A stretch of 17,827 bases of DNA, taken from positions 1 through 17,827 of the IMG/VR virus record IMGVR_UViG_2778261533_000006; one strand, written 5' to 3'. Position numbers: made by a program. Positions 1 through 6,000 of this stretch are shown in pieces (position 1 is the stretch's first letter; each line of letters starts with the position of its first letter). Source of the DNA: a virus (Duplodnaviria; Heunggongvirae; Uroviricota; Caudoviricetes).

Positions 1-3000
1 TCAGTCAATTGTTTTGTTTATTCCATCTGTGACGCCGATTATTTTCTCAAAATAATGAGATGGCGTGACACCATAATAATCTTTAAATGCACATATGAAA
101 TATGAAGTACTGTTATAGCCACATTTCTGGGCTACGACATTGATAGAATAAGAGTTTGAAGTTATGAGTTTTTTTGCATACCTCATCCTAGTATCTCTCA
201 ATATTTCAGTAAATGACGTTCCTTCATCCCTTAATCTTTTTTTTATTAAACTTTCACTCGTATAAATCAATTCCGCAATATCTTTTAAATGCCATTGCCG
301 CTCAATATTAAAACTGATTATTCCAGTAATTTTACAGGTAAATGTATTTATATTTGTTAGTATAAAAGAATTTACACTTTCGCGTTTTTTGAACATGGCA
401 AGTAAGGATATACATAGTCTTTCTTTTAACCAAAGGGAGTGTGAGTCTGCTATTTTAATCCCTTCAAACAGAGAAAAAACAAGCGATAATGGAGGTTCCT
501 CTTCAGCAATATAGCCATTCTTATCAAGAGTAAATTTGCCAGGCAGCTCATTATTCACGTCGATAAAAAAGGATAAACAAGTTTTCTTATCTATATCAAC
601 AATTCTTAGTTTAGAGGGGCATACTGGTAACTCCCTTCTAATTTTGTCGCTTACAATAAACAATGAATTTTTTTTGAACGAGATAACTCTCCTGTTTATA
701 ATTAAATCAAATGATTGACAGATGAAAACTACGGAGCAAACATAATCCATCTTGCACCTATCATAAAATTAAAACAAGTTGATAGCAGTCAAATAACAAC
801 CAATTAAATACACAATCATAATCAGGATGATGTGCATTTATATTTTTATACACAAAATTATAGTTTGCAAATTTTAATAAATTTCATTTAAGATTAAATT
901 ATTATATGTATATTGTTTTTTATTCTAACGTATTTCAAAGTTACATTTTTCAACGCTTACTATACTTTTTATTAACATAAACTCACTACAACGCACCTGA
1001 AACCTCTTGCTATATATATGTCAACCGTTTGAATTTAAAATAAAAAGAGTATCATTTTTACTTGCATTTCTTATCAAGTCACATTCAACAACAGTAAAAA
1101 AACATTATTAGAACCATTCAATTAACAAAAAAACCAACATCCAGCTTGCTTAATTTTTCTTTATTAAACGATATTGAAAATCAATTGATAAAATACATCT
1201 AAACAACCTTTTGGGGCGCAAAAGCATAACATCAAACAAATAACACACCGAAAAAACTCACAATTAATAACCTATGATATACATACTGTTTATTATGGTT
1301 GAATAAGCCACTCGATATCTGGTGCTACGGAAGTGTCCACACGGTTTAGCAGCACCCGATACTTTTTTCAGGCTTCCAGCAACGATCTTTCTTCCTCCGT
1401 TGCGATTTCCAGATCTACAGCATCCTGCAGTGGCGCAATATACTCACTGAATTCCTGGATGTAGAACTGTGTGGTGACGGTCTTCCAGCTATTCGGCTCC
1501 TGCTGTATTGAAGCATACCAGGCTATTTCAATATCGCTATGCTGCGGCAGCATTTAACCCCTTGTAATTCATTGCCATAATTGATTTAATTCACAAATAA
1601 AACTATAACATGGTGAAATTAATGAAAAAAAACACAGATGATGGGGCTAAAATTTACACACCACTTACCCTAAAGCTTTATGACTGGTGGGTTTTGGGAG
1701 TATCAAATCGGCTTGCATGGGGATGTCCTACAAAGGAACACCTTCTTCCACACTTTCTGGAACATTTAGGTAACAACCATCTGGATATTGGTGTTGGAAC
1801 TGGGTTTTACCTTACTCACGTACCTGAGAGTAGTCTGATATCTTTAATGGATTTGAACGAAGCTAGCCTGAACGCGGCATCTACAAGGGCTGGGGAATCA
1901 AAAATTAAACATAAAATTAACCATGATGTTTTTGAACCTTATCCCGCGGCGTTACATGGTCAATTTGATTCCATTTCCATGTTTTACCTTCTTCACTGCC
2001 TGCCTGGAAATATATCTACAAAAAGCTGTGTAATACGCAATGCGGCGCAGGCCTTAACTGACGATGGAACTCTATACGGAGCCACAATTCTTGGCGATGG
2101 AGTTGTGCACAATAGCTTCGGTCAAAAACTGATGCGCATTTACAATCAGAAAGGCATCTTTTCAAACACAAAAGATTCCGAAGAAGGCTTAACACATATA
2201 CTCTCAGAGCATTTCGAGAATGTTAAAACCAAGGTTCAAGGTACTGTAGTAATGTTTTCCGCTTCAGGGAAAAAATAGCATCCAACCGCAGCACGTTCTT
2301 GCATAAGGCGTGTCTGCGGTTTTTCAACTATTCAGATACATCACTCCCATCACATTCATTCCTCCGCATCATAGGCATATAGGCTATATCACCTTGATAT
2401 TTTTCTTCTTCAGATAAAAACTGTTATCTATGTATACTTTTAAACCCAATCCGTGTAGAGTCTCTGCATAAGATAGTTTGCAGTTGCCACTTCAGCTTGC
2501 GCCATAAACCGCCTGATTTTTGCTGCCACCTGTTAGCATTCCTGTATACCTGAAACGACAATGTTTATCTACGAACTTTAAGAACCCCCAGGATAAAAAT
2601 TGTCAACTATATCATATATAACACATTACTAATTCGAGGCTATATGAACAGCATACTGATAATCACTTCGCTCCTTATCATATTCAGCATTTTTAGTCAT
2701 GCGCTAATAAAATTAGGGATTGGCATATCCAATAACCCAGACAAAACCGATGTATAAGTCAACATATCCTGAATCAGACATACAATATCGCAATGAAAAT
2801 CAATAATATTTTAAGGAATATCTTCATGAAATCAAAAGACACCCTAAAGTGGTTCCCTGCGCAGCTTCCTGAAGTAAGAATTATCCTAGGGGATGCTGTA
2901 GTGGAAGTAGCAAAACAGGGAAGACCTATCAATACCAGAACATTGCTTGATTACATTGAAGGAAACATAAAGAAAAAATCATGGCTGGATAACAAAGAAT

Positions 3001-6000
3001 TATTACAAACAGCGATATCAGTTCTTAAAGACAACCAAAATTTAAATGGTAAAATGTAATATAATAAACTTACTTTTTTATCATTTTTCCACTTTAACAA
3101 CATTTTGCTCCACTTTTCCACGACCAAACAACTTGAAATCTGGTTAAAATAACACGCAACACTATTCTTCTTCCTTGAGTCCGCCCGGAACTCGAAAAAC
3201 AAACCGAGTTAAAGCCATTTTTCACAAAATCGATTTTGGGTCTCACCAAAATTACGGGGTTGCATACGCATTCGTTTATTTTCGAACGTGTACATACAAA
3301 TATGCACAAAAATAATCATAATTATTTTCTGAGATGCATTATGATATGAACACCAATTTCGTATAGAGTCTCACTATGTCTCAAATTTTTGCTTACTGTC
3401 GGATATCAACGCTGGATCAGACCACCGAAAATCAACGCCGGGAAATCGAAAGTGCAGGTTTTAAAATCAAACCTCAGCAAATAATCGAAGAACACATTAG
3501 CGGCTCAGCAGCAACCAGTGAGCGTCCTGGTTTTAACCGGTTGCTTGCTCGCCTGAAATGTGGTGATCAATTGATTGTGACAAAACTGGATCGCCTTGGT
3601 TGTAATGCAATGGATATCAGGAAAACAGTGGAACAACTGACCGAAACAGGTATCAGAGTGCATTGCTTAGCATTGGGGGGCATTGACCTGACCAGTCCAA
3701 CAGGAAAAATGATGATGCAAGTAATTTCAGCAGTCGCTGAATTTGAACGAGACCTTTTACTTGAACGCACTCATTCCGGGATAGTAAGAGCCCGCGGCGC
3801 AGGGAAACGTTTTGGTCGACCACCTGTGTTAAATGAAGAACAGAAACAGGCGGTATTCGAACGAATTAAGTCAGGTGTAAGTATAAGTGCCATTGCCCGG
3901 GAATTCAAAACCTCGCGGCAAACCATTTTAAGAGCCAAAGCAAAACTTCAGACACCTGACATATAAAAAATAATCTCGGTGTGAGATGCTTTACGTCTTC
4001 CAAGCCCCCTTCCTTGCCGTAAATGGAAAGATACATCTAATTATAGAATTTATATGTTTTACCCTACGGCAGTGCTGGCCATTCAATATCCTGTGCAGTT
4101 GACGTATCAACACGGTTCAGCAATACCCGATACTTTTTCCATGCTTCCAGCAACGAGATTTCTTCCTCCGTTGCAATTTCCAGATCTGCAGCATCCTGAA
4201 GCGGCGCAATATGCTCACTGGCTACCTGCATCAGGTTGTTTTTTGTTTCTTCCGCCTCCCGGATCCGGAACAGTTTTTCTGCTTCCGTATCCTTCACCCA
4301 GGCTGTGCCGTTCCACTTCTGAAACTCCCCTTCCGGCGATAACCAGGTAACATTTTTCGGTAACGGACCGAGTTCAGAAATAAATAACGCGTCGCCGGAA
4401 GCCACGTCATAAACCGTTTTACCCCGATGATCTTCAACGAGATGCCACGATGCCTCATCACTGTTGAAAACAGCCACAAAGCCAGCAGGAATATCTGGTG
4501 GTGCAATATCGGTACTGTTTGCTGGCAGACCTGTATGAGGCGGAATATATGCGTCACCTTCACCAATAAATTCATTAGTTCCGGCCAGCAGATTATAAAT
4601 TTTTATGGTCCGTGGTTGTTCACTCATTCTGAATGCCATTATGCAAGCCTCACAATATAGTTAAATGCGATGTTTTTGACGGTGTTTTCCGCGTTACCAG
4701 CAGCGTTAACGGTGATGGTGTGTCCATGTGAACCAATCGCAACGGAGTGCGTATGAGCACCAATACCGACAGTATGCGCGTGTGCACCTGCAGATGCTGC
4801 TGTGCCGGACAGTGAATGGCTATGATTACCATCTGTACTGGTATTCGCTAACCACCCCGTAGACATACCTACTGAGCCTTGTACACCCGTTGTTAACTTA
4901 TCCATGGATTTCATAACCCCACCTCGCAGACAAAGCGGGTGTAAATTGAGGGAATACAACGTATCGCAAAAAAGCAGAAACGTAACAGACTCGGAGTCAG
5001 TGAATAACTCAGGTATTGGGTTATCAGCTAATATCGAGACTCAAAAAATGGAAAAACCCGCTCGACGGCGGGTTTAAGCTGTGTGACGAAGTAACCACTC
5101 TTAACAGCATAACCAATTTTTTACGTACGTAAACCACAAAATGATATTTGCGAGAATGCTACCGAGTATTGAAAACACCACTACAAATACATAAGCAAAT
5201 CTCAACAAATAACCAACAAATAATTTCCAGTGTTATTTTTAGCCGATTTAAATTGAACCTTCAAATTACAGAGCACTTATAAATAACAGCCGTTAATATA
5301 AATTGGCTAATAGATTTATTTTTATTCAGCCAAGATCCATGAATAGGATTCGATAGAAAAAAGTTCAGATAAAAATAGAGATCTACTTCACAAATCAAAC
5401 GAGAAACCAAAACTTACATCTTGAAATAATCACATTGATTAGATGAATATTTATCGCGCAGTGACATCATTTTTTAATAATAGTTCAAAAAAAAGGGCTC
5501 ACGATGAAAAAATTAACAGTGGCAATTTCTGCTGTAGCTGCATCAGTACTGATGGCGATGTCTGCTCAGGCAGCTGAAATTTATAATAAAGACAGTAACA
5601 AGCTGGATCTATATGGGAAAGTTAATGCCAAGCACTACTTCTCCTCTAATGATGCAGATGATGGTGATACTACTTATGCCCGTCTTGGCTTCAAAGGTGA
5701 AACCCAAATCAACGATCAACTGACTGGTTTCGGTCAGTGGGAATATGAATTCAAAGGCAACCGCGCTGAATCTCAAGGCTCCTCCAAAGACAAAACCCGT
5801 CTTGCATTTGCAGGCCTGAAATTCGGGGACTACGGCTCAATCGATTACGGCCGTAACTACGGTGTAGCATATGACATCGGTGCGTGGACTGACGTTCTGC
5901 CAGAATTCGGTGGCGATACCTGGACCCAAACAGATGTGTTCATGACTGGTCGCACCACTGGTGTTGCAACTTATCGTAACAACGACTTCTTTGGTCTGGT

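Follow-up and report, generated by a model that had tools for sequence, protein, structure and literature searches.

The stretch of DNA analyzed here (hereafter, the window) comprises 17,827 nucleotides (nt) filed under Caudoviricetes in IMG/VR (record IMGVR_UViG_2778261533_000006, positions 1 to 17,827) and is 100% identical, by megablast, to the chromosome of Escherichia coli PSS-07 (NZ_AP027673.1, from position 3393192). Judging from its genes, the window represents the right arm of DLP12, a cryptic prophage of the lambdoid type, viewed from the appY/ompT end. The criterion for DLP12 was integration at argU with intD, plus quuD, an nmpC-type porin, appY, and ompT; the Prokaryotic Genome Annotation Pipeline (PGAP) places tRNA-Arg, intD, rusA, quuD, the porin, appY, ompT, and envY in the order known from E. 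coli K-12. The genes of the identical PSS-07 record run ompT, appY, a tfa fragment, a methyltransferase gene, ynaM/ynfT, ydfK, a recombinase gene, tfa, an stf fragment, the porin gene, quuD, and rusA, and on to intD and tRNA-Arg. The window covers the tail fiber end and the nonessential “b region” of a DLP12-type lambdoid prophage, in the form of a remnant from which the head, tail, and lysis genes, cos, and the greater part of stf are missing. Our subject is the pair of sequences derived from tfa, the tail fiber assembly gene, and the deletion that recombination between them would cause.

The right copy (4064-4639, minus strand; denoted D) is an intact tfa, homologous to lambda orf-194 and encoding a 191-amino acid (aa) protein (WP_000885602.1 in PGAP). 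This protein belongs to Caudo_TAP (PF02413), with a score of 146 bits against a cut-off of 22.1 and residues 72-191 covering profile positions 1-130, and the DNA of the gene is about 90% identical to that of lambda tfa. It is a complete open reading frame (ORF) directly downstream of stf, the side-tail-fiber gene, the tfa start overlapping the stf stop at 4639. The left copy (1293-1460, minus strand; denoted X) is a tfa 3′ fragment, the equivalent of K-12 tfaX and referred to below as tfaX′, which PGAP annotates as [quoted passage not shown] When the stop is read through, the translation scores 84 bits with Caudo_TAP, and only residues 31-86 align, at profile positions 75-130 of 131. The fragment thus retains only the last 56 tfa codons, approximately 135 N-terminal codons being missing whether or not the stop is present; there is no stf upstream, the 5′ end is truncated, and a TGA lies inside.

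Four genes, all on the plus strand, separate the two copies: an intact gene for a class I S-adenosylmethionine-dependent methyltransferase (1610-2278; Pfam Methyltransf_12/23/25/11 and PGAP), which in K-12 is the pseudogene ybcY; the small protein gene ynaM/ynfT (2644-2757; Pfam YnaM, 96 bits, and PGAP); ydfK (2826-3059), a paralog of ynaE annotated by PGAP as “cold shock protein YdfK” (WP_000836768.1); and a gene for a 196-aa Pin-type serine recombinase of the PinQ/PinR kind (3376-3966; Pfam Resolvase and HTH_7). On the other side of X lies appY (1-750, minus strand; PGAP), encoding an AraC-family activator. This cargo gene of DLP12-type phages, also present in phages PhiR68_2 and Kati, served as the left anchor for recognizing the locus.

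The 3′ ends of the two tfa copies form a direct repeat that both a repeat finder and local alignment returned as a single ungapped block, 1307-1460 against 4078-4231, with an offset of 2771 and 82.5% identity over 154 nt. In the narrower intervals 1340-1451 and 4111-4222, identity reaches 87.5% (112 nt); the least similar part of the repeat, 1307-1339, is 66.7% identical, and the 60 nt flanking either end only 33-37%. The alignment score is 173, compared with a mean of 19 and a maximum of 29 for 300 shuffled partners and a maximum of 27 for genuine segments from elsewhere in the window. The two copies share the minus strand, in direct orientation, and each encodes the C-terminal part of Caudo_TAP/lambda Tfa. 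The window accordingly holds two homologous, directly oriented segments on one replicon, that is, a substrate for repeat-mediated deletion. The original prediction, made from the bare sequence, of a same-orientation repeat of about 88% identity consisting of two tfa 3′ ends agrees with these results, both identity values exceeding the 75% that it had set as its lower limit. Its description of the interval as methyltransferase-ynaE-pin was correct for the outer genes; the gene taken for ynaE is ydfK, and ynaM/ynfT is present as well.

On the minus strand, a TGA at 1368-1370 in the left copy faces the TGG at 4139-4141 in the right copy, which encodes W167 of the 191-aa Tfa, so the TGG-to-TGA change reported earlier is found where expected. 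The TGA is present in the appY-linked left copies of the window, of strains S10 and ZH177, and of phages PhiR68_2 and Kati, as well as in K-12, where the left copy is identical at this site. By contrast, TGG is kept in the left copies of an O39:H21 strain, of O157:H7, of the potB-site prophage of GZ04-0083, and of phage 2G7b. Considering that these other lineages keep TGG, the TGA is derived, lineage specific, and secondary. The nonsense change is real, but on this comparison it struck an already truncated fragment: the truncation, not the stop, makes the left copy dead, and the view that the copy was inactivated by a tryptophan-to-stop change must be abandoned.

Recombination between the two copies would yield the left flank and left copy joined to the sequence beyond the right copy. 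A 554-nt junction query of this form was compared with 5,426 complete E. coli genomes, and nine of these (EM18-18-42, WGI31CT, SFE8, MIN6, QA-1986 83, ES7, ES8, PER13-34, and CFIAFB20190172) gave one contiguous match running from the appY flank through a single tfa into stf, with the 2.8 kb absent. A tenth match, in ZH177, was discarded, since this locus is a two-copy variant resembling K-12 in which the methyltransferase gene is truncated. In the six recombinant loci that were fetched (SFE8, MIN6, PER13-34, EM18-18-42, WGI31CT, and CFIAFB20190172), appY is directly followed by a single tfa of 576 nt and then by stf, usually with lom and J. Within the same genome collection, the junction of the appY flank, tfaX′, and methyltransferase gene is kept in 565 genomes, and the pin-containing form (at least 80% of window positions 1100-4300) occurs in 311. 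The common form, present in 2,240 genomes, is the K-12-type junction, in which the methyltransferase terminator abuts the tfa 3′ end. The appY-proximal end of DLP12 exists as at least three structural alleles, with the recombined form in about 1.6% of the genomes that have an appY-linked copy. The ZH177 locus (L009, 4190-5559) is a further structural allele, with tfaX′, a methyltransferase gene without its N-terminus, a tfa of 546 nt, and neighboring prophage genes unlike those of K-12.

Five sequences from the fetched loci were aligned with X and D of the window and with K-12/L002-type D alleles, and the points at which they switch from one type to the other were expressed in left-copy coordinates. 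Every single-copy allele consists of the X flank and an X-type 3′ end followed, further 5′, by D-type sequence, and the switches fall into four intervals spread over approximately 100 nt, all inside the repeat. The switch lies at 1332-1335 in SFE8 and MIN6 (QA-1986 83, ES7, and ES8 were placed in this class solely on identical junction-search scores), at 1338-1347 in CFIAFB20190172, at 1352-1362 in PER13-34, and at 1388-1427 in EM18-18-42 and WGI31CT, X and the K-12/L002-type D being identical over these last 40 nt. The D parts of the hybrids represent at least two tfa allele types, the window/tfaQ type and the K-12/L002 type. The hybrids of EM18-18-42 and WGI31CT carry the TGA, are annotated by PGAP with an internal stop, and are translated only as far as ...SLLEA; because several Tfa residues differ between the two, they may stem from separate events. 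The other seven hybrids, three of them by score class, are intact and annotated as 191-aa proteins that end in ...VAPDIEWLIQP, unlike the C-terminus of the window Tfa.

These nine genomes, with the expected junction and, in the aligned alleles, a mosaic single tfa, bear out the prediction that recombination would delete the 2.8 kb. The accompanying idea that the event regenerates a tfa does not survive, given that the right copy already is an intact gene for 191 aa; the event only exchanges its 3′ end and, in EM18-18-42 and WGI31CT, imports the TGA. As an overall interpretation, repeat-mediated loss stands, and regeneration and the stop as the cause of inactivation fall. There is practically no chance that the similarity of the copies is accidental or that the single-copy forms are assembly collapses: the repeat scores far above its shuffled partners, with both copies matching the same Pfam family, and the nine genomes come from unrelated projects in a collection of complete-level assemblies and show four junction types. 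Moreover, copies that are 82% identical over 154 nt would not be expected to be collapsed by an assembler.

A single copy could also be the original state, with stf-tfa-appY ancestral, the two-copy form made once by insertion or illegitimate joining, and the nine genomes never having had the insertion. One illegitimate join between two phages would be the simplest origin of a duplicated tfa tail, and it is the single-copy genomes that have the more complete prophage arm. Nevertheless, the detected junctions make this history unlikely. An ancestral allele would show one pattern, whereas four X/D switch points lie within 154 nt; within 1428-1460, where the left copy still has sequence homologous to tfa, every single-copy allele departs from it at six sites; and in two alleles, the TGA interrupts an otherwise full-length gene, which is most simply explained by inheritance from tfaX′. 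At least four independent junctions, together with D parts of two allele types, speak in favor of recurrent recombination rather than a single copy as the original condition.

We favor, with a probability of roughly 80%, the interpretation that the diverged tfa tails are direct repeats, that recombination between them removed the 2.8-kb block in some strains and left a hybrid tfa, and that the left tail is itself the scar of a module exchange. A plausible parental form is S10, which has the complete two-copy arm J-lom-stfR-tfa-pin-ydfK-ynaM-methyltransferase-tfaX′-appY and matches SFE8 with 99.1% identity across 4.5 kb of tfa and stfR. A less probable but serious possibility is that the single-tfa alleles arose by intermolecular exchange, in which the tfa of an infecting phage or of a resident Qin- or Rac-type prophage recombined with tfaX′, replacing the arm and dropping the cargo. 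This scenario gains from the presence of at least two tfa allele types in the right-copy parts of the hybrids, from the several tfa copies in every genome (a median of 2-4 matching places), from the complete J-lom-stfR arm in most single-copy loci, and from the experimental demonstration of phage-by-prophage exchange in stf/tfa (PMC3945230). Yet S10 combines two copies with the same complete arm, so a local deletion by one crossover suffices; besides, the outcome of intermolecular exchange would be the same, recombination within the same 154-nt repeat, and it would refine rather than contradict the preferred interpretation. The natural events may have been intramolecular deletions or may have been exchanges with another tfa copy.

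In the deletion model, a past exchange of a tail fiber or cargo module, or a join between two lambdoid genomes, would have left the tfa tail as a scar, which would since have moved as one fixed unit with the methyltransferase gene, in prophages as well as viable phages. Homologous recombination between the tails, either as intramolecular deletion or as unequal exchange, would then remove 2771 bp with the methyltransferase gene, ynaM/ynfT, ydfK, and pin, the product being one hybrid tfa with a 3′ end from tfaX′. A crossover at coordinates below 1368 would give an intact 191-aa Tfa with the changed C-terminus ...VAPDIEWLIQP; one above 1370 would carry the TGA into the hybrid and truncate the protein at residue 166. 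RecA could drive the event or, more probably, a phage recombinase of the divergence-tolerant Rad52 type. Relaxed homologous recombination lets lambda exchange DNA within stf/tfa with Rac and Qin, two defective prophages (De Paepe et al. 2014, PMC3945230); phage recombinases of the Rad52 type cope with such divergence, and 12% divergence lowers the yield only approximately 100-fold during lytic growth (PMC3945230).

Several observations weigh against this interpretation. The longest perfect run shared by the two copies in the window is 16 nt (1388-1403). Efficient RecA-dependent exchange usually needs some 20-30 bp of perfect identity, a length that the window does not attain. In addition, the DLP12 bet gene is truncated here (PGAP). 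Given a perfect match of at most 16 nt and a truncated bet, the predicted deletion should be rare in PSS-07. The SFE8-class switch falls where the repeat is least similar, between mismatches only 3 nt apart, an unexpected place for simple homologous recombination; an unseen parental allele or heteroduplex mismatch repair may account for it. The direction of change, from two copies to one, is suggested by the mosaic patterns, not by a dated phylogeny. Finally, the recombined form was not found among 50,697 sequenced phage records.

The recombinase gene between the copies invites a different explanation, namely, that the segment is moved, excised, or inverted by its own Pin recombinase, with the tfa repeats as the ends of the element, in the manner of the Mu G, P1 C, and e14 P segments. 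In Mu, P1, and e14, alternative tfa/stf cassettes are governed by invertases of this family, and the interval does contain a complete serine invertase gene adjoining tail fiber genes. An inverted pair of approximately 26-bp sites around stf-tfa cassettes, the other hallmark of the Gin/Hin/Cin/Pin switches, is missing: a search of the window with a Gin/Hin/Cin/Pin consensus returned no crossover site at three or fewer mismatches, and the complete form in S10 contains only one core-like 12-mer, a number expected by chance, and no suitable inverted-repeat pair. Furthermore, the tfa copies are direct rather than inverted, the second tfa lies beyond pin without an stf partner, and the natural junctions are scattered over approximately 100 nt instead of marking a fixed site. 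We regard recombinase-driven movement of the segment as highly improbable, and an invertible switch was rejected because no crossover-site pair rose above chance in the window or in S10. The recombinase apparently is an orphan without a substrate, as pinQ and pinR are. The lone hix/gix-like core, AAACCAAGGTTC, is located at approximately 2226-2237 (7127-7138 of locus L013), inside the 3′ end of the methyltransferase gene; one such core is the chance-level count, and it has no partner site.

The block formed by the tfa tail and the methyltransferase gene, with the same truncation point, is found at other integration sites with other cargo, in O157:H7, in the potB-site prophage, and in phage 2G7b. 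In O157:H7 F8797 (L007, 4982-9367), it closes another lambdoid prophage beside IS66, an alpha/beta hydrolase gene, and ompT, and the cargo between the block and the full tfa consists of genes for a general stress protein, two ferritin-like proteins, and a manganese catalase. In GZ04-0083 (L008, 4981-6160), the block lies at the end of a potB-adjacent prophage, with almost no cargo before the full tfa. What lies between the working tfa and this scar probably is a slot for variable cargo. Because isolated phages carry the same two-copy layout, the repeat is best regarded as the scar of a module exchange within the nonessential region of the phage. In the isolated lambdoid phages PhiR68_2 (L014), Kati (L015), and 2G7b (L016), ompT is located between the tail fiber genes and int; beside it lies appY in PhiR68_2 and Kati, and an alpha/beta hydrolase gene in that place in 2G7b. 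Given that isolated phages carry them, the “chromosomal” K-12 genes ompT and appY are cargo of still-viable DLP12-like phages.

The left copy extends into an ORF of 61 codons (1368-1553, minus strand) that is listed as “protein TfaX” (b0563) in the K-12 annotation. Codons 1-30 (1464-1553) are judged not to derive from tfa because Caudo_TAP covers only residues 31-86; the K-12 TfaX of RefSeq is a chimeric ORF, in which 30 codons of non-Tfa sequence, provided with an ATG of their own and an AAGGGG motif resembling a Shine-Dalgarno sequence, precede 31 Tfa codons closed by the derived TGA. Annotators should accordingly not read codons 1-30 of the K-12 “TfaX protein” as Tfa. The N-terminal 30-35 residues were also considered as a second type of Tfa, a candidate that was rejected, with no Pfam match even at E ≤ 10. 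In a homologous locus, PGAP annotates this stretch as “DinI family, frameshifted” on the opposite strand, a weak assignment that Pfam did not confirm on the 31-aa translation. It is conceivable, and in our estimate improbable, that the dead tail is kept as a homology “handle” for shedding or swapping cargo or that the TfaX ORF, of 61 to 86 codons, makes a small protein that hinders or aids fiber assembly; this is speculation, and the conservation of the tail can be explained by recent common descent.

Upstream of the right copy, the last ~250 nt of stf (4639-4888, minus strand; Pfam Phage_fiber repeat) are all that remains of this gene, which was cut by an unrelated large deletion with its junction at 4883-4888. 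Positions 4000-4888 are 100% identical to the tfa/stf end of S10 and PhiR68_2, both of which have an intact stfR-tfa pair, and the match stops at 4888. The junction of this second, much larger deletion occupies 4883-4914 (minus strand): from 4883 onward, the sequence corresponds to the initial 32 nt of essD, the K-12 holin gene, and to the essD-nmpC spacer. The essD ATG (4914-4912) is joined in frame to the stf tail, and all lysis, cos, head, and tail genes are lost at this point. At a distance from these genes, in the early-left region, five copies of an approximately 18-bp palindrome, TTTACCTGATTCGGGTAAA, spaced by 19-29 nt, occupy 13886-14002 and overlap the end of a DUF1382 gene; they look like a protein-binding array.

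All parts of the locus are already annotated in RefSeq and named in K-12, and the locus is a case of ordinary prophage mosaicism and decay, of low interest. As interpreted here, it offers a clean natural example of how the cargo end of lambdoid prophages is reshaped by crossovers in diverged tfa tails, and it explains tfaD, ybcY, and tfaX of K-12 as a working tfa, a cargo methyltransferase gene, and the scar of an older tfa, respectively. A literature search for tfaX, tfaD, and ybcY brought up only passing mentions. In K-12 evolved with ethanol, a deletion of 6.8 kb extends from insH to ybcY; it probably was IS5 mediated rather than repeat mediated, considering that it starts at insH, the IS5 transposase gene.

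Among the closest known counterparts is the same locus in K-12, where the right end of DLP12 reads nohD-aaaD/tfaD-ybcY′-tfaX-appY-ompT and shares the appY flank, the tfaX fragment, and the TGA. Across the repeat, the left copies of K-12 and the window do not differ, and over window positions 1100-1620 their identity is 98.9%; tfaD and tfaX form a direct repeat with 85% identity over 157 nt, the copies being approximately 1.05 kb apart. Unlike the window, K-12 has only the methyltransferase pseudogene between the copies, ynaM/ynfT, ydfK, and pin being absent, and it retains nohD and the lysis genes, which the window has lost. The K-12 prophages Qin (tfaQ-pinQ-ydfK-ynfT) and Rac (tfaR-pinR-ynaE-ynaM) show the same gene order and orientation as the window and likewise have an orphan Pin-type recombinase; window positions 2269-4300 are 99.3% identical to the ynfT-ydfK-pinQ-tfaQ segment of Qin. 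In Qin and Rac, however, there is no flanking direct repeat, because the block ends at the prophage border, with no methyltransferase gene or second tfa fragment beyond.

Phages PhiR68_2 (PV340576) and Kati (PP925833) contain the same segment, appY-tfaX′(TGA)-methyltransferase-ydfK-pin-tfa-stf, with 99.7-100% identity. Both are complete phage genomes of 46-50 kb with int, ompT, lom, and J, in the order int-ompT-appY-tfaX′-methyltransferase-ydfK-pin-tfa-stf-lom-J. In phage 2G7b, the block of tfa tail and methyltransferase gene lies beside a different kind of tail fiber gene set. The Mu G/Gin, P1 C/Cin, and e14 P/Pin switches share with the window a serine invertase gene near tfa/stf and more than one tfa-related sequence. 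They differ in that the window has no inverted crossover sites and its second tfa is direct, truncated, without an stf partner, and on the other side of pin.

A parallel to the proposed events is the mosaic evolution of lambdoid tail fibers (Haggard-Ljungquist 1992, Sandmeier 1992/1994, as cited in PMC3945230), in which diverged stf/tfa genes serve as crossover points between phages and defective prophages and, as in the recombinants described here, the junctions are scattered without a single hotspot (PMC3945230). The exchange in that system is between phage and prophage, whereas here both partners reside in one element and, being direct repeats, would yield the deletion of cargo genes as the outcome.

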